Shown in pieces: positions 39,745-58,260 of a stretch of 64,000 nucleotides of DNA. The number at the start of each line of letters is the position of its first letter. Position 1 is the first letter of the stretch. The position numbers and the translations under genes were made by a program. The notes under the pieces were generated by a model. It was not told the DNA's origin. It did not search any database and saw only the letters and a list, made by a program, of their open reading frames with translations. Source of the DNA: a virus (lineage: Duplodnaviria; Heunggongvirae; Uroviricota; Caudoviricetes); the IMG/VR virus record IMGVR_UViG_3300028833_002293, positions 36,535 to 100,534 of that record. One strand, given 5' to 3'.

Positions 39745-40000
39745 TTGCAGGGACTGACGGACTCGAACCGCCATCGTTTATTAACAGTTAAAGGCACACT
39801 CTGTTCCGAAGTCGAGACTGCGTTATTCCTTAAATCGCAACAAATTACTCTTACCATTAAGCTAAATCCCTATATAAATACAAAAGACTGAGAATTTTGT
39901 CTTATTGTTGATGCCATTCTACAACGGTTGGACGTTGCTCTTCACACGCTACCTTACGATAGACGTAGACACCATGCACGGACGGTCTTGTGAAGACCAC
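39745..40000 (-). ncRNA. LSU (23S) rRNA-like fragment, domain IV region (equivalent to E. coli ~1880-2070), containing a tRNA-like T-arm and a 22-nt repeat
   Basis: minus strand reads ...CTGCACCGTAAGGTTTAA...TCGTAAGGTAGCG...GAATGGC...CAGTCTCGACTTCGGAACAGAGTGTGCCTTTAACT, colinear with 23S H67-H71 and the GACGGAAAGACCCCGUGAACCUUUACU segment. Confidence 0.4.
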
Positions 40001-40964
40001 CAAGAAACTTACTAGTTTAAACCTTACGGTGCAGCATCATAGCTTTCAGTTCTTCGCCAAGCTCTTGCGGATTCGTAGGATGCCTCCTACTGACTCAGAC
40101 GAGTACTTTTACACGCTCATTGATTTCCTTGCGAGTCCTCAATGTCTCAATATTGCATGAGAATAAGTGCATTTTAGCTGCCTAGTGTCGCACACTTTCG
40201 CTTTGAGTTATATTATCATTTTTGAAATCCTAATTCAAACCTTATTTGTGCAACGATTATGGAAGACGAGGTGCGACTGATAGCATTCGTACCTTTTGAG
40301 CACGACCCACTAAATCGCCTCCCTGTGAAAGCTCACCACAAGCAACTCACTATCACGTACTATCAGCTCCTATGAGTTCTTACGTCTTTCAACGTAAGAC
40401 TAGTACACAACTGAACCCAACACGCCAACTGGTGATTATTGCATCGAGTTCCGCATGGTAATCTTTTGTGTCACCACTCATCCAAAGACGTACCTTGCCC
40501 TTGGAAGCCTACACCAATGGTGTTACCCACAGCGTAGACCGTACCATGCGCTTTTCCGTGAAATGCCTTGAGAGCTTCGGCTCTCCAAACATCCGCAATG
40601 CCTAACCGTAACAAACAGCATCACGTTTATCCCATCACTGGATTATCCTTCCATCTGGCCACGAAAGCTGGCCATTAGCCTATGCCTTTTGCAAGACATT
40701 TCCTCTTGGAATCAGCTTATTCTTTTGGGTATTATTTCCATTTTGGATTATTATAATCAGTAAAGTGCTTCCTCTTACGAGGTGGGTCTCTATCCCAAGC
40801 TCCGATTCTTTACACCATCATAGAATACCTTCCCCAATTCATTTTTTTCTAGTACACGTTCTCTAGAATTATGGCTTCCGAAGTCACCATAGTTATGGAT
40901 TGTTTAACCACATAAAACCCACTTTTACCGTTGTCTACGGCACGAAAAGGCATTTAATGTTGGT

Positions 40965-41100
40965 AAGAGTAGATTTGCACTACTGAAGCCTCCTAAGAGA
41001 CACATCAAGCACGAACTTGATGCCCATTTGTCTACATCACCATCACTGGTGTTCTCCTCTGGTACTTACCAAAAGGTGGTTTTTTACTTTGTCCACCGCA
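40965..41100 (+). repeat. LSU rRNA-like segment (E. coli ~2240-2320 equivalent), copy 1 of a ~135-bp direct repeat
   Basis: plus strand reads CCTCCTAAGAGA..AAGCACGAAC..ACATCA..GGT, compared with CCUCCUAAAGAGUAACGGAGGAGCACGAAGGUUGG...GACAUCAGGAGGUUAG; second copy at 41440..41570. Confidence 0.35.
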
Positions 41101-41439
41101 AAAACTCTTTGCGTTAAGAATTAACGTATTGTTGATGAGGATTTTTCGAGTCAACAAATCATTCTAGACTAACTTGAAGACCTACCCACAGCTTCCTAGA
41201 CATTTTGCGCATTGTTCTAGTAAACACTAGCCTCATCACTACCGTTTTAGCTGCGAGATTCAATATTATTGCAGTATTGCAAAGGCTGATTCATTTTACA
41301 GAACCAATTTAATGGTAAAGGACATCTGCTATATTTCGTACAGTTGTATGTTTGTCGCAACCTCACTTTCCTCGCCAACCTTTACTGCCGATTGCACATG
41401 AACGTTTATACTGCTTAGTTGGTAGAGCTAGATTTGCAC

Positions 41440-41570
41440 TAGCGAAGACTCCGAAGAGCCACATCAAGCACGAACTTGATGCCCATTTGTCTACATCAAC
41501 CTAAAAGGTTGTTCTCCTCTGGTATCTACCAAAAGGTGGTTTTTTAACTTGTCCACCACAAGAATTGTTG
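41440..41570 (+). repeat. LSU rRNA-like segment, copy 2 of the direct repeat
   Basis: ~85% identical to 40965..41100. Confidence 0.35.
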
Positions 41571-41652
41571 CGGGAGTTGGATTCGAACCAACACAATGCG
41601 AGTTCCGTCTCAAGGTTATGAGCCTTGCATGTTACCATTACACTATCCCACA
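41568..41652 (-). tRNA. tRNA with CAU anticodon and an 18-nt variable region (class-II-like body)
   Basis: reverse complement: TGTGGGA-TA-GTGT-AATGGTA-ACAT-G-CAAGG-CTCATAA-CCTTG-(18 nt)-GTTGG-TTCGAAT-CCAAC-TCCCGCA-A; promoter 41757..41795 upstream. Confidence 0.5.
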
Positions 41653-41756
41653 ATATTATGTATCTAAGTCGGAAACTATATTTTTTTCGCGTTTTAGATT
41701 TACAGTCTAATGAAAAGTTAATTAATTGCTGTAAGTTTCCTTTATTAGTTTCAACT

Positions 41757-41795
41757 TTGCAAAGATATGAAAAATATTTTTAATATCCAAAATTT
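41757..41795 (-). promoter_or_regulatory. Bacteroidota-type promoter driving a tRNA transcription unit
   Basis: ttgcaaagatatgaaaaatatttttaatatccaaaat; the 5' leader contains the GGAAACTTACAGCAA motif; tRNA at 41568..41652. Confidence 0.6.
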
Positions 41796-56107: not shown

Positions 56108-56112
56108 ATTTT

Positions 56113-56142
56113 GGCTGCTCTATCCAGTTGAGCTACGGATGC
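56113..56142 (-). ncRNA. isolated tRNA 5' half (acceptor GCATCCG plus canonical D-arm) with no adjacent 3' half
   Basis: reverse complement: GCATCCG-TA-GCTC-AACTGGATA-GAGC-A-GCC; its acceptor strand is perfectly complementary (one G-U) to the 3' fragment CGGATGT at 54737..54743. Confidence 0.35.
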
Positions 56143-56529
56143 ATTTTCAAAAAATCTGATACACGAGAGTTACTTTAGGCTGCATAACCCTCTCCTTTGT
56201 GCGAACTCTATGCCAACGATATATTCGCCACACGCTCTATATGACTTCCCACTCGGCTTATCAAGTCTTTGTGTGTTACGTAACCAATCATTTCGCAATC
56301 CATGCATATCCAAGTGTACTAATCATCCAATCCTCTCAGATTTTATTTTTTATTCACATTCGTGAACCACAATATTGTTATCTTTGCTTGGGTCTTTACT
56401 TGGGTCATAATCCCCATGAATGAACGGCACATTTGGGTCAACCTCTTGAGCGTTATGAATACTATGTATGAATGCCACCAAGCTAATTAAGACTAAAGCT
56501 AGAAATATATACAACGCAATTGTCATAGT

Positions 56530-56697
56530 TTATTTGTTTTTAATTATTTCAGCTAATTCGTCCAAATCCTTTAAAAAGGAATCTCTGCTTTCTTCCTTAG
56601 ACGGTTTATTAGACCACTTGTTAAGGAGCTTTGATACCACCATAAGGACAAATATCATAATAAAAGCCGCAAACATAAAAAATAATAATCTTCCCAT
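56530..56697 (-). CDS. small single-pass membrane protein (start moved to the internal ATG)
   Basis: listed 63-aa ORF starts at TTG inside the promoter; the ATG at 56697 gives a 55-aa TM protein; promoter 56716..56752. Confidence 0.4.
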   Translation of the reverse strand: MGRLLFFMFAAFIMIFVLMVVSKLLNKWSNKPSKEESRDSFLKDLDELAEIIKNK

Positions 56698-56750
56698 ATT
56701 AAAACGTTTTTCGTACTGCAAAGATATGAAAAAAAATTGGATTAGCCAAA

Positions 56751-57773
56751 TTATTTTAATCTTTTTAACCTATTTTTATACCAATTTTTCAAAATATCAT
56801 AAATTCCTTTATTTCTTTTAACAAACATATCACCTTGTGGATTCTCCTTTGATGAATATTTTTTGAAGCTACCTCTAGCAGTACCATTTTCCTCATTCCA
56901 TCTTCCAATGACCCTTCTCATTTTTTTAATCAGATAAGAAATGTTGGTATCGCATAATTTAAAATAGTTTTTTGGCTCATCTATTCTCCTAATAGACGCA
57001 TCAATATATTCTTTTGTGTTGTCTCTTGTAAAATAATCCTCTTTTGAAGCATAGACTTGTTTTAATAATTTGTAGTCTTTAATTGTATCAGATAGTATTT
57101 TATAGGTTTTAGTATCTCTGATGTCATTTTCATATTGTGACTCTATATACATTTCTTGAACCCATGCATCTATCTCGTCTCTATCTAATCTATAGTATAT
57201 CCAAGGTATTGTAAAATCTGCAATTCGTTTCATTGGGGTATTCGCGCTTGAATTGAAACCAAATTTGTTTTTCAGTTCGCTTTGTGCCTTTAAATACTGG
57301 GGTGTGATATTAGTGCCGCCTCTTTTATACGATTGATAAGCATGTTTTATTTCGTGATTGATTGTAGATACAATATAGTTTTTTTCTCTATGAGGTATGA
57401 CATCTGTCATTGCCCACACAAATGAAAATGTTATTATTCTATTATTAGGAGAAAAATTATTTTTTAAATAGCCATTATTAGAAATAAAATCCATAACATC
57501 ATCAAACGTTTCATTTTTTGGGTTATAGTAGTATAGGTTAACAGTAATTCTATTCAAAAAAGACAATGTTTGAATATTATTAATATCCAAATTAAATGTT
57601 TTACCATATATTTTTTTATCTCCAATCTGGAACGTTTGACCTCTATATTCTCTATGATGTTCATATATCAAATTAAAAATGGTCATAGACATTTGCATAA
57701 TATCATTTGACACGCCACCATATTCTAATATTACTTCTTTTACTATAGATTCTATGAGACTATTTTTAATCAT
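56751..57773 (-). CDS. putative Zn-dependent metallopeptidase (HExxH)
   Basis: 340 aa; NHEIKHAYQ contains HExxH. Confidence 0.45.
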   Translation of the reverse strand: MIKNSLIESIVKEVILEYGGVSNDIMQMSMTIFNLIYEHHREYRGQTFQIGDKKIYGKTFNLDINNIQTLSFLNRITVNLYYYNPKNETFDDVMDFISNNGYLKNNFSPNNRIITFSFVWAMTDVIPHREKNYIVSTINHEIKHAYQSYKRGGTNITPQYLKAQSELKNKFGFNSSANTPMKRIADFTIPWIYYRLDRDEIDAWVQEMYIESQYENDIRDTKTYKILSDTIKDYKLLKQVYASKEDYFTRDNTKEYIDASIRRIDEPKNYFKLCDTNISYLIKKMRRVIGRWNEENGTARGSFKKYSSKENPQGDMFVKRNKGIYDILKNWYKNRLKRLK

Positions 57774-57899
57774 AACAAAAGTTGATACCTATTATTTAAT
57801 ATATAATAAATATCAACTTCTTTTCTTTTCATTATATAATTCTCTTCTCCTTCTATTTATTTCTTCATAAAGTCGCATATTTTATTCAAATAGTTAGGT

Positions 57900-58260
57900 G
57901 TGCTGTTACGCCAAAGACAGCGCAGTTAACCTTACGCCTCACGATTCACGTTTACTGTTTCGTCCAAGAGTCTAGCAGCGGCTTTAAAGGTTCTCTAGCT
58001 TGACTTCACGAGCCTCATTCGGTCTTATATTTCAGACTCTCCGACTTCGACCTCTCGTCTCTCGCCAGTTAGGGATTTGCAACTCCCAAGTTATCTAGAT
58101 GCACCTAGGGTTTTTGCACGAGGTGTAAACCCATGAAACATTCTACCTCACCACTTACTGAGCACTGTCACTCTTTAACAGATGGCTGCTTCCAAGCCTA
58201 CTGTCCTAACTACTTATAAAAAGGCTGTTACTCAAATACCATTTAACTACAGCGTTATAC
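57900..58260 (-). ncRNA. LSU (23S) rRNA-like fragment (domain II, ~1050-1150 E. coli equivalent)
   Basis: minus strand reads GGCTTGGAAGCAGCCATCTGTTAAAGAGTG... compared with E. coli GGCUUAGAAGCAGCCAUCAUUUAAAGAAAG... Confidence 0.4.

Follow-up and report, generated by a model that had tools for sequence, protein, structure and literature searches.

A candidate L1-stalk mimic among the structured non-coding RNA genes of a jumbo phage tRNA island

The L1 stalk of bacterial 23S rRNA (H76-H78, about nt 2105-2184) is a domain from which a 55-nt fragment of the L1-site RNA suffices for specific L1 binding, and L1 binds there in preference to the operator in its own mRNA (PMC2175363). The stalk also carries a double T-loop platform (residues 2112 and 2169) that stacks on the tRNA elbow (PMC3664808). 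Non-ribosomal RNAs that copy the uL1 site are found as the uL1 operators of the L11 (rplKA) leader and the archaeal L1 mRNAs (PMC2175363), and double T-loop modules occur at the apex of T-box Stem I and in J11/12 of RNase P. Y RNAs of the YrlA type (RF02553), which are known from phages, are about 130-150 nt long and have paired 5′ and 3′ ends and a permuted tRNA-mimic head (Chen et al. 2014, PMC4201824). GOLLD RNA is encoded by phages, where its gene follows tRNA-Met directly within a tRNA island and has a tRNA-like gene attached (PMC12286853, PMC5737381).

We analysed a 64-kb stretch of phage DNA (hereafter the window), which on balance is best read as a tRNA-island stretch of a jumbo phage with independent conserved structured non-coding RNA genes, one of them an L1-stalk mimic. 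It encodes an RNA ligase, a CCA-adding enzyme, a tmRNA and about 28 tRNAs, and the structured non-coding RNA genes are all on the minus strand. The promoters are of the Bacteroidota type and the host is therefore probably a member of the Bacteroidota, as had been supposed before. Genes for RNA repair and NAD salvage, of a kind typical for counter-defence regions, are present in the window as well. A sequence-only reading had described six scattered 23S-like segments here; all of the strings it quoted are found at the places given, and similarity to 23S rRNA rises above chance in two of the six segments, one confirmed and one borderline, but not in the other four.

The confirmed segment, an L1-stalk head at 54333..54420 on the minus strand, was identified by blastn and nhmmer against E. 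coli 23S rRNA and with our own covariance model. Judged by its sequence it comprises the L1-stalk domain in full (H76-H78, about 80 nt) and is the sole element in the window that is certainly rRNA-derived. It copies the distal part of H76, H77 and H78, including both T-loops (GUAGGAUAGGUGG ... UUGAAAUACCACC), and is closed by an H76-like stem of 6 bp (UAUGAG/CUCAUG). Positions 54341-54415(-) align to E. coli 23S 2110-2184 (numbering from the annotated gene in locus L001) with 78.7% identity over 75 nt (blastn E=1e-11; nhmmer E=3e-8), such that a real 23S-derived element is present in the tRNA array outside any intact rRNA gene. The earlier assignment of minus 54300..54530 (GTGTAGGATAGGTGGGAG, 36 nt, CCTTGAAATACCACCCT) to 23S rRNA was thus correct, although its position is that of the L1 stalk rather than the proposed E. 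coli ~2010-2080. The covariance model, trained solely on the copies from other phages, gives 90.1 bits (E=2e-22) and has its sole match within the window here. The segment is matched in every complete E. coli genome, and the matches listed fall in 23S rRNA. Rfam reports no LSU, SSU or 5S gene in the window at the gathering score; the Rfam LSU model leaves the window copy unreported even at E<=10 and reports the near-identical copy in contig L003 with 63 bits.

H77 (GGUGG/CCACC) and both T-loops are unchanged across the collected copies, an invariance that is partly ascertainment because both were in the search pattern. Double compensatory changes occur at 9 of the 16 predicted pairs of H78 when phage and rRNA copies are compared, and one H78 pair varies among A-U, G-U, G-C and A.C across the seven window-lineage copies; the window copy has an A.C mismatch in H78. 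The H76 closure consists of 6-9 contiguous pairs that differ in sequence per lineage and always meet the same junction (five lineages). These compensatory changes indicate selection on structure. The phage element thus has both T-loops, the H77 sequence and the three-helix layout in common with the 23S stalk, with H78 kept through compensatory changes, and its boundaries are those of the minimal fragments used for L1-RNA crystallography (PMC2175363, PMC3664808). It differs in lying outside rRNA, in having a short lineage-specific stem in place of H76, and here in being embedded in a 224-nt cassette. T-box Stem I and RNase P resemble the L1 stalk through a shared motif only, whereas the phage element reproduces the rRNA sequence almost letter for letter; a specifier loop, a T-box sequence and an RNase P core are all absent from it, and Rfam gives it no T-box or RNase P match.

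Host rRNA reads assembled onto phage DNA, or contamination, could in principle produce such a match, and some nominally viral contigs that match the same pattern are plain 23S (L005, L009 and L015). However, the head recurs with identical local sequence on seven independent contigs from several samples, so a chimera, which had been named as a possible refutation, is ruled out; both flanks are phage tRNA-array sequence, and the copy differs from all 23S sequences retrieved (among 120 genomic 23S copies the closest agrees at 53/60 positions within the pattern region, and its flanks are unrelated). An artefact is accordingly exceedingly improbable.

The L1 cassette (54294..54517, minus strand, 224 nt) is present as a whole, with identical ends, on five of these contigs (the window, L003 and L140-L142), and L139 and L143 contain the head on contigs that are cut short. 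It reads, 5′ to 3′, GGAAACGU-ACAGCAG, a ~95-nt 5′ arm, the L1 head, a ~35-nt 3′ arm, ACGUUUCC and UUUU, and ACGUUUCC is the 3′ strand of an 8-bp terminal stem. Immediately downstream is tRNA-Arg(ACG) (54214..54289, minus strand), the last gene before the next promoter-like site (54139-54212), although the tRNA at this place differs between genomes. The cassette is absent from the close relatives L018, L010 and L145 and is therefore accessory rather than essential; a tRNA gene occupies the same slot in relatives without it. No description of such an rRNA mimic, a stand-alone L1-stalk copy on a reusable RNA scaffold, was found in the literature.

This scaffold is shared by eight paralogous cassettes in the window with the form 5′ GGAAACNN-ACAGCAR ... 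N′N′GUUUCC 3′, a motif that occurs eight times against 0.8 expected and every time on the minus strand. A closing stem of 6-8 pairs was detected in 27 of the 28 distinct cassettes from the window and its relatives, and the stem covaries at positions 7-8 (AU/AU, GU/AC, AA/UU and UU/AG) and further within it (GGGAAC/GUUCCC and AGGAAC/GUUCCU). The neighbour of the L1 cassette (54553..54691, minus strand; AGGAACGU-ACAGCAG ... CGUUCCU and a U-run) has an unclassified head with no Rfam match, and is present in relatives with or without the L1 cassette. Four cassettes, all on the minus strand, have heads that fold as a T arm, a capped acceptor-like stem and a D arm, a permuted tRNA-like order: 61923..62054 (terminal stem GGAAACAU/AUGUUUCC), 59454..59599 (GGAAACGU/ACGUUUCC), 58584..58733 (GGAAAC/GUUUCC) and 42683..42811. 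The remaining two, also on the minus strand, are a short cassette with a degenerate head (60980..61066; stem GGGAACU/AGUUCCC) and a minimal cassette of 70 nt (41671..41740; GGAAACU/AGUUUCC) that has a Bacteroidota-type promoter just upstream and tRNA-Met downstream.

The tRNA-headed cassettes resemble YrlA RNAs in their size, their paired ends and their permuted tRNA-mimic heads. However, Rfam reports a YrlA-like match (RF02553) for the cassette at 42683..42811 alone, and weakly, at 37.5 bits against a gathering score of 69. The cassettes have GGAAACNN-ACAGCAR in place of the 5′ GNCGAAN0-1G Ro-binding motif, and no Ro60/TROVE gene was found near them; the 40 largest ORFs of the window, when scanned, contained no TROVE/Ro60 domain, no ribosomal protein and no partner for the scaffold. 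They also differ from Y RNAs in forming a set of eight paralogues in one array and in including a head made of an rRNA domain, which is unreported for Y RNAs.

On IMG/VR contigs of 24-153 kb, at least four further lineages have isolated L1 stalks with boundaries 2108-2191 and a verified closing stem, and one additional copy is cut at a contig end; at least four and probably five unrelated phage lineages thus carry such an element. All are cut at the same boundaries as the window copy and each is closed by a different stem, with no other 23S sequence beside them in these contigs. They lie outside a scaffold of the window type and some are close to small ORFs, and a single common function is thus not established. 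A distance of 30-100 nt separates the element from a following small ORF in lineages B, C and E, and in lineage E an AGGAGG and start codon follow after 20 nt. Such an arrangement could reflect a cis-acting uL1-responsive operator in the style of the L11 leader, coupling expression or processing of downstream phage sequences to the assembly state of host ribosomes. Known L1 operators copy just the H77/H78 junction and sit in the mRNA of ribosomal-protein genes; the phage copies include the whole domain with both T-loops and the tRNA-elbow platform, and no downstream ORF encodes a ribosomal protein. L1 is a translational repressor that acts through an rRNA mimic (PMC2175363), but the window element is followed by a tRNA gene rather than an ORF and is enclosed in a self-contained cassette with paired ends that is paralogous to tRNA-like cassettes. 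An operator is therefore an unlikely explanation here.

The second segment with some similarity to 23S, minus 57900..58260 (proposed as ~1050-1150), falls in a conserved, unclassified structured RNA of ~300 nt (57897..58205, minus strand). The 5′ end of this RNA has an H43-like hairpin (58179-58203), UAAAGA and a short H44-like hairpin (58160-58173). Positions 58172-58203(-) agree with 23S 1059-1088 (H43) at 26/30 positions, with a blastn E=0.011 in a search with the whole window, and the Rfam LSU model (positions 1098-1144) gives 17 bits (E=0.004) in a search of 521 nt only. By sequence, the hairpin is thus a borderline match. Its outer stem covaries, and the ~300-nt RNA in L162 is recognised by nhmmer with E=4e-126 beside a protein of as little as 48% identity. 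The GTPase-associated centre (23S H42-H44, nt 1051-1108), which binds uL11, has the stem, the U.U mismatch, the CCAUC 3′ strand and the UAAAGA junction in common with the phage hairpin (26/30 identity to E. coli for the window and 30/35 for L144). In contrast, A1067 is G in all phage copies, a different loop takes the place of the H44 hexaloop, an H42 closing stem is not seen, one phage sub-lineage has drifted further from rRNA, and the hairpin is just the first 45 nt of a 300-nt RNA.

The other four segments have no similarity to 23S rRNA and belong to other RNAs. Rfam identifies the conserved 3′ domain of a GOLLD RNA (RF02032 positions 1-416) at 39885..40323 on the minus strand, a full-length match with 85 bits (E=4.5e-22); as this is below the gathering score of 150 the copy is a divergent member, and the domain is 78-86% identical in nine related contigs. 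It contains TAAGGTAGCG and, as complement, GAGAATAAGTGC, the strings that had been assigned to H67-H71 (minus 39745..40000) and 23S ~2790 (plus ~40130..40200), neither of which has a 23S match at E<=10. The putative 5′ variable region of GOLLD (40324..41103, minus strand) includes a module of ~145 nt (copy B, 41103-40960) consisting of a small hairpin followed by a five-way junction closed by UUGGUAAG/CUUACCAA. A second copy (copy A, 41419..41562, minus strand) is directly downstream of tRNA-Met (41567-41652). These are the tandem segments (plus 40965..41100 and 41440..41570) proposed as 23S ~2240-2320, for which there is no 23S match; the module is a minus-strand RNA, and its G.U pairs would become C.A mismatches on the plus strand. 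Related contigs contain 16 distinct copies with compensatory changes in four helices, and in related jumbo phages the module is upstream of GOLLD. Directly 3′ of GOLLD is a tRNA-like gene (39748..39871, minus strand; Rfam tRNA 39.4 bits) that is not called by ARAGORN and is 79-95% identical in relatives. Its ~50-nt insert carries a 22-nt repeat that is real (39799-39820 and 5921-5942, with one mismatch and none expected by chance) but without the 23S similarity once ascribed to it. The locus thus shares with GOLLD its phage origin, its tRNA-island position directly downstream of tRNA-Met and its attached tRNA-like gene, and differs in the well-defined five-way-junction module of the 5′ region and its duplication in this phage.

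These assignments bear on the proposal that the array was seeded by a captured host rrn segment, with its spacer tRNAs Ile and Ala, that decayed to scattered functionless 23S remnants. Genuine 23S-derived sequence is present, the array does include tRNA-Ile(GAU) (42571-42645 and 62480-62551) and tRNA-Ala(UGC) (39063-39136 and 51467-51542), and HNH homing endonucleases among the tRNAs could shuffle DNA. However, the two tRNAs are adjacent neither to each other nor to the L1 element, so that capture is unsupported by them, and neither the window nor 343 kb of DNA from related phages shows a trace of 16S, 5S or the remaining 23S rRNA; the 64 kb yield one certain and one borderline match, the other supposed fragments being GOLLD and further RNAs. 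The ends of the L1 piece fall precisely at the base of H76, a folding-domain boundary; the piece recurs elsewhere with new closing stems and sits inside a conserved scaffold shared with tRNA-like paralogues. A decayed operon is contradicted by these boundaries, by the compensatory changes that indicate selection on structure, by the missing 16S and 5S and by the separated tRNAs, and we regard it as highly improbable.

Two further functions can be considered for the L1 head. As a docking module, its double T-loop platform would grip tRNA elbows, whether of the phage, the host or the tRNA-like sister cassettes, much as such platforms do in the ribosomal E site, RNase P and T-box Stem I. Possible uses are processing, shielding from defence nucleases that target tRNAs, or the building of RNA-RNA complexes. 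All lineages retain both T-loops and residues 2112 and 2169, except for one in which 2112 differs (PMC3664808). The element is part of a tRNA island, its paralogues use the same scaffold to present tRNA elbows, and tRNA genes are within 3 kb of it in three of the six lineages (that of the window and two others). Elbow stacking alone has weak affinity, with T-box and RNase P needing a second contact, and the cassette arms showed no second element for binding tRNA, such that this role is a tentative possibility. Alternatively, the RNA may serve as a decoy that draws off a host defence factor directed at ribosomes, such as a nuclease or modifying enzyme with specificity for the L1 stalk. Phage tRNA arrays counter tRNA-targeting defences, RNA-repair and NAD-salvage genes are at hand, and presence varies between close relatives as for accessory counter-defence genes. 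The idea of an rRNA-mimic decoy, raised speculatively before, fits the L1 element by its sequence, but no associated protein points to such a role, toxins or defence systems directed at the L1 stalk are not known to us, and the literature searched yielded none; a decoy of this kind appears quite unlikely.

The likeliest reading of the sequence is that the L1 cassette specifies a trans-acting mimic that would bind uL1 and/or tRNA elbows. Host-type promoters would transcribe the cassette jointly with the neighbouring tRNAs, and tRNA processing would free it, the pairing of its ends stabilising the RNA. The cassette RNA would then present an authentic L1-stalk fold in trans, expected to bind the stalk's ligands: uL1 with rRNA-like affinity, and possibly the elbows of tRNAs or of tRNA-like sister cassettes. 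To the benefit of the phage, such a molecular mimic may thus target the translation apparatus of the host, whether by soaking up ligands as a sponge or by serving as a docking module.

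Comparison of the E. coli rrn operon (16S, 23S, and 5S rRNA) with the whole window by sensitive blastn and nhmmer identifies two segments related to 23S rRNA. Positions 2110–2184 align with window coordinates 54415–54341 (-) at 78.7% identity over 75 nt (blastn, E=1e-11), and positions 1059–1088 align with 58201–58172 (-) at 26/30 positions (blastn, E=0.011). Neither program finds a further 23S match at E=0.1 or better, or anything below E=5 for 16S and 5S, in the whole window; no rRNA family reaches its Rfam gathering score there, and LSU rRNA is not reported even at E<=10 over 39000–59000. 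We reject a 23S rRNA gene, intact or decayed, as there is no colinear match to the ~2.9-kb LSU model and there are no multi-domain remnants, only the 2110–2184 and 1059–1088 segments. The sequence-only reading had taken six 23S-like segments in the tRNA array as pieces of a captured and fragmented host rrn operon; all of the quoted strings are present, but one is solidly rRNA-derived, one is borderline, and four are something else, and with only two 23S matches found the observation is therefore confirmed in part.

The 54341–54415 (-) segment reads GUGUAGGAUAGGUGGGAG-ACGUUGAAGCAUAUUCGCUAGGACGUGUGGAGUCAA-CCUUGAAAUACCACCCU, and by its sequence is the L1 stalk of 23S rRNA (helices H76–H78). Both T-loops (AGGAUA ... 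UGAAAUA) and the H77 strands GGUGG/CCACC are identical to those of E. coli, and platform residues 2112 and 2169 are kept; the two T-loops are known to form a head-to-tail module, in which the 2112/2169 platform stacks on the G19:C56 tRNA elbow (PMC3664808). A covariance model built only from the copies in other contigs has exactly one match in the window, at 54333–54420 (-) with 90.1 bits. The Rfam LSU model misses the window copy yet reports the near-identical copy in L003, a contig of the same lineage, at 63 bits, and filter behaviour is the one explanation that we offer for the miss. Minimum-free-energy folding of the L1 cassette, the 224-nt unit holding this element, gives no signal (z = -0.08), as expected where tertiary contacts dominate the fold.

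Isolated L1 stalks of ~80 nt were found by IMG/VR pattern scans in phage contigs of 24–153 kb, in the lineages L003/L017 (that of the window), L004/L006, L007, L011/L012, L013/L014/L016, and L008; the scans also picked up plain 23S rRNA (L005, L009, L015) and, from the end of contig L002, a longer piece of 23S. In every isolated copy the 23S similarity begins at 2108–2118 and stops at 2183–2191, the base of H76, and the rRNA H76 is swapped for 6–9 contiguous pairs that differ in sequence in each of five lineages (UAUGAG/CUCAUG; AGGUAGUG/CGCUACCU; GAGAGCAUG/CGUGCUCUU; CAAGUG/CACUUG; AGGUUGUG/CGCAACCU); the L008 copy ends at the contig end and was left out of the closing-stem comparison. Across the copies H77 is unvarying and H78 has compensatory changes at 9/16 predicted pairs. 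Among seven copies of the window's lineage, including five from extra contigs found in a metagenome scan, one H78 pair is A-U, G-U, G-C, or A.C, and others are U-A versus U.G. The shared boundaries, new closing stems, and compensatory H78 changes argue that the L1 element is not a relic. Chimeric assembly as the source of the L1 piece is excluded, since separate contigs assembled from different samples share the element. A genome-wide pattern scan returns 23S rRNAs of many phyla, the best of which matches at only 53/60 positions with unrelated flanks, and thus points to no donor.

A UUUCCU-U-rich tail follows the isolated L1 stalk in both the L004 (2400–2640) and L013/L014 (about 1700–1900) lineages; an additional stem (AAGGGGGA/UCCCCCUU) surrounds the L004 stalk, and the L014 stalk has AGGAGG and the beginning of an 88-aa Cys-rich ORF 20 nt downstream of its end. 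A ribosomal protein leader, i.e. the uL1 mRNA operator of rplK/rplA, is rejected because the downstream genes do not encode ribosomal proteins, being tRNA-Arg in the window and small non-ribosomal-protein ORFs in the other lineages. In those lineages with a small ORF after it, the L1 stalk may act as a cis operator.

Around the L1 stalk is a larger conserved unit (54294–54517 (-)) that opens with GGAAACGUACAGCAG and closes with ACGUUUCCUUUU. Eight copies of the 15-nt opening motif lie in the window (0.8 expected), always on the minus strand and inside the array, and for each copy the reverse complement of its first 6–8 bases lies 60–215 nt downstream, often with a U-rich stretch after it. A terminal stem of 6–8 pairs is detected in 27 of the 28 distinct cassettes of the window and its relatives, and it covaries (GGAAACAU/AUGUUUCC, GGAAACGU/ACGUUUCC, GGAAACAA/UUGUUUCC, GGAAACUU/AGGUUUCC, GGGAACU/AGUUCCC, AGGAACG/CGUUCCU), which argues that each cassette is a discrete RNA whose ends pair and whose stem has a conserved ACAGCAR box next to it. 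Four in the window (62054–61923, 59599–59454, 58733–58584, and 42811–42683, all (-)) have a permuted tRNA-like head consisting of a T arm, a loop-capped acceptor-like stem, and a D arm, and in the L1 cassette the L1 stalk occupies the place of this head. A sixth cassette (54691–54553 (-)) has a head of an unrecognised kind, and two further ones are minimal. The relatives that lack the L1 cassette (L010 and L018) have a tRNA gene in its slot. Within 54677–54772 (-), 40 nt (54733–54772) are 100% identical to the 3′ half of an L003 tRNA, and the window is without a complete tRNA there; the stretch looks like a tRNA remnant from cassette shuffling beside cassette 54691–54553.

The four cassettes with tRNA-like heads, but not the L1 cassette, resemble YrlA-type Y RNA (RF02553) in having a tRNA-like domain between paired 5′ and 3′ ends. 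However, the best Rfam score, for one cassette, is 37.5 bits versus a gathering score of 69, and the other cassettes in 39000–59000 go unreported at E<=10. The motif that defines YrlA near its 5′ end, GNCGAAN0-1G, is the proposed Ro60/Rsr contact (PMC4201824); it is absent from the 5′ ends of the cassettes, which read GGAAACNN-ACAGCAR. The YrlA neighbourhood was assessed as a Ro60 (TROVE) gene within about 4 kb on the same strand, and none is present among the 40 window ORFs scanned with Pfam or among the called genes of the related locus L162. With the Ro-binding motif absent, no Ro60 gene among the scanned ORFs, and the Rfam score sub-threshold, we reject a canonical Y RNA and regard the cassettes as a scaffold family of their own that has a YrlA-like layout. 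Tandem tRNAs are a familiar source of false positives for YrlA models, and the Rfam model also matches two tandem tRNA-Lys genes at 48327–48445. Such an artefact is rejected for the tRNA-like heads because AU-rich linkers and a covarying terminal stem enclose each one, and several are constant in length among relatives. A retron-like RNA (a terminal inverted repeat followed by AGC) was dropped, there being no reverse transcriptase among the scanned ORFs and the heads being tRNA-like.

The sequence TTTG ... TAnnTTTGCA, which we take to be the Bacteroidota sigma-A promoter type, recurs in intergenic regions of the window. A repeated intergenic promoter-like motif of ~45 nt (AAUUUGG...N18-20...UAUCUUUGCA; e.g. 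43229–43267, 32817–32856, 41750–41797, 52561–52601, 56717–56775, 62302–62353, and 54139–54212, all (-)), fits the Bacteroidota type (-33 TTTG, -7 TAnnTTTG), and so points to the host phylum and marks transcription units. No such site lies between those at about 56717–56775 and 54139–54212, from which we infer that the L1 cassette is probably co-transcribed with tRNA-Arg(UCU), an HNH gene, and tRNA-Arg(ACG). A sigma-70-like promoter before the L1 cassette (54546–54518, 10/12) is given no weight because its conservation among relatives is only partial and promoters of the Bacteroidota type are what the phage uses elsewhere.

The window is AT-rich (31–41% GC) with a uniformly negative GC skew, and every gene examined is on the minus strand. 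There are 28 tRNA genes by ARAGORN and 30 tRNA matches by Rfam, together with a tmRNA (42175–42537 (-); Rfam, 76.9 bits) that has tRNA-Ile(GAU) on one side and small ORFs on the other, and lies 150 nt downstream of the YrlA-like cassette. Related contigs reach 295–412 kb in size, and from the tRNA and tmRNA content, the Bacteroidota-type promoters, and these large relatives we conclude that the window is a piece of a jumbo-phage tRNA island, the host of which is probably a member of the Bacteroidota. No cultured phage relative was found: blastn against 50,697 phage records returns only tRNA matches and 23S-contaminated records. An RNA ligase (4577–5488 (-)) and a CCA-adding enzyme (7998–9392 (-)) are encoded alongside scattered NAD-related genes (520–7489, 22209–22823, and 34594–35094, all (-); the salvage enzymes NADAR, NAPRTase, Nudix, and CinA, and an isochorismatase-like, i.e. 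nicotinamidase-like, protein), a mix that typifies regions of counter-defence and RNA repair. The window also encodes DHFR and several HNH endonucleases. A 92-nt tRNA with a CUA anticodon and a long extra arm (36322–36413 (-)), of the amber-suppressor type and called 'tRNA-Pyl' by ARAGORN, may reflect TAG recoding in part of the phage genes. Just downstream of an HNH endonuclease gene is a 55-nt mini tRNA-like element (55320–55374 (-); Rfam tRNA, 20 bits, E=0.3) that consists solely of an acceptor stem and a T arm.

The weaker 23S match is at 58179–58203 (-), where CAGUAGGCUUGGAAGCAGCCAUCUG resembles H43 of the GTPase-associated centre; UUAAAGA comes next, and then a short hairpin at the position of H44. 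The H43-like hairpin forms the 5′ end of a ~300-nt RNA (57897–58205) that is present in six contigs and is far better conserved than the adjoining 340-aa ORF (in L162, nhmmer E=4e-126 versus 48% protein identity), which belongs to no Pfam or PHROG family and has hypothetical homologues only. Among three hairpin variants the outer stem covaries (AUG/CAU, CAG/CUG, AAG/CUU) and the inner GGCU/AGCC changes to GGAU/GUCC. Compared with H43, the stem and 3′ strand are kept and three pairs covary, but loop position 1067 is G in 6/6 copies (the rRNA loop is UAGAAGC, with A1067); the Rfam alignment shows that the H44 GUAAUA hexaloop (A1095) is not kept, with a 2-nt deletion and non-canonical pairs, and direct reading finds no complementary strand to close an H42 stem. 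The closest variant to rRNA is that of L144 (30/35), and one sub-lineage has drifted further. The element is plausibly rRNA-derived or convergent, and we rate it as not a faithful mimic of the uL11 site because of the G at 1067, the loss of the H44 loop, the lack of an H42 stem, and the drifted sub-lineage. Also within the 300-nt RNA, ACGAGAGG at 58050–58057 (-) is identical to the sarcin-ricin loop core (GAGA tetraloop and flanking A.G); this likeness is confined to the octamer, the bulged-G motif is not kept, and we reject it as chance level, curious as the two pieces are together. In the distant relative L162 (about 5800–5850) the loop region that runs from UCUGA to AAUAUAAGACC has gained ~40 nt, with the remainder nearly identical, and this insertion behaves like an expansion segment of a structured RNA.

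Two other segments read as 23S rRNA, 39745–40000 and 40130–40200, are instead both inside a full-length match to GOLLD RNA, and TAAGGTAGCG and GAGAATAAGTGC (as complement) are visible in the GOLLD alignment. The match (RF02032; 39885–40323 (-), model positions 1–416) covers the conserved 3′ domain and scores 85 bits (E=4.5e-22), below the gathering score of 150, with the hallmark strings present; this GOLLD would be a new member of a known family. It is flanked by tRNA-Met upstream and a tRNA-like gene downstream, an order kept in nine related contigs; for GOLLD, a phage or prophage setting beside tRNA genes, also downstream of tRNA-Met, has been described before (PMC12286853, PMC5737381). The supposed tandem 23S copies have no 23S similarity by blastn or nhmmer, and correspond to two copies (41562–41419 and 41103–40960, both (-)) of a module that combines a small hairpin with a five-way junction, the closing stem of which is UUGGUAAG/CUUACCAA. 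Among 16 distinct copies in related contigs, four of its helices have compensatory changes. In all fetched loci that extend far enough, the module is some 300–1200 nt upstream of a GOLLD 3′ domain, with a conserved insert-bearing tRNA-like gene after GOLLD, and this constant placement suggests that it is part of the variable 5′ region of GOLLD. The reported 22-nt repeat (CAGUCUCGACUUCGGAACAGAG/U) does exist, at 39799–39820 (-) and within 5720–6010 (-), but is without 23S similarity. Upstream of the RNA ligase gene is a gap of 570 nt, and the 5720–6010 stretch, which is non-coding, takes up ~290 nt of it. At the end of this stretch is a tRNA-like unit that has an acceptor, a D arm, and a T arm but another sequence in place of the anticodon arm; neither tRNA tool calls it.

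The aligned copies show an L1-stalk domain, faithful and structurally maintained, that is carried on a paired-end scaffold and recurs in unrelated phages. We have fair confidence that the L1 cassette would be made as a stable small RNA folding like the L1 stalk, and moderate confidence that it would bind host uL1, because the L1 element corresponds exactly to the minimal site of high affinity: a 55-nt fragment of the L1-stalk region suffices for ribosomal protein L1 to bind specifically, and L1 favours the rRNA site over the operator in its own mRNA (PMC2175363). The RNA could titrate uL1, leading either to de-repression of the L11 operon or to uL1-poor ribosomes; it could dock tRNA elbows, and the sister cassettes display exactly such elbows; or it could be a decoy for a putative defence factor. 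A broader proposal, tentative and rather doubtful as a whole, is that Bacteroidota jumbo phages carry modular 'display' RNAs, in which a factor-bound stem-plus-box scaffold bears interchangeable heads mimicking translation RNAs (mostly tRNA elbow/acceptor, in one case the 23S L1 stalk), that the L1-stalk RNA captures uL1 and/or docks tRNA elbows, including those of the sister cassettes, thereby rewiring or shielding translation during infection, and that, as stand-alone L1 stalks occur independently in several other phage lineages, rRNA-domain mimicry would be a recurrent and so far overlooked viral strategy.

Viruses are known to copy tRNAs, and cells regulate ribosomal proteins through partial rRNA mimics in mRNAs. 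Full-text literature searches gave no account of a phage that encodes a mimic of the L1 stalk or of any other rRNA domain, the L1 cassette has no family in Rfam 15, and as far as we could find a virus-encoded, stand-alone, complete rRNA domain has not been described previously. The L1 cassette is best called akin to known kinds, namely rRNA-site mimics and Y-RNA-like modular RNAs, and could exceed these should rRNA mimicry in trans be confirmed. In practice, a short 'rRNA hit' in a viral contig should not automatically be dropped as contamination. If true, the element would provide structural and single-molecule studies with a minimal L1-stalk module of natural origin that evolution has already tested. 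The cassettes suggest that Y-RNA-like scaffolds are able to bear heads besides tRNA mimics, and the family bears on the role of Y RNAs and of the large ornate phage RNAs in tRNA islands; binding of uL1 or tRNA elbows in trans, if true, would be a new phage route to manipulate or protect the translation apparatus.
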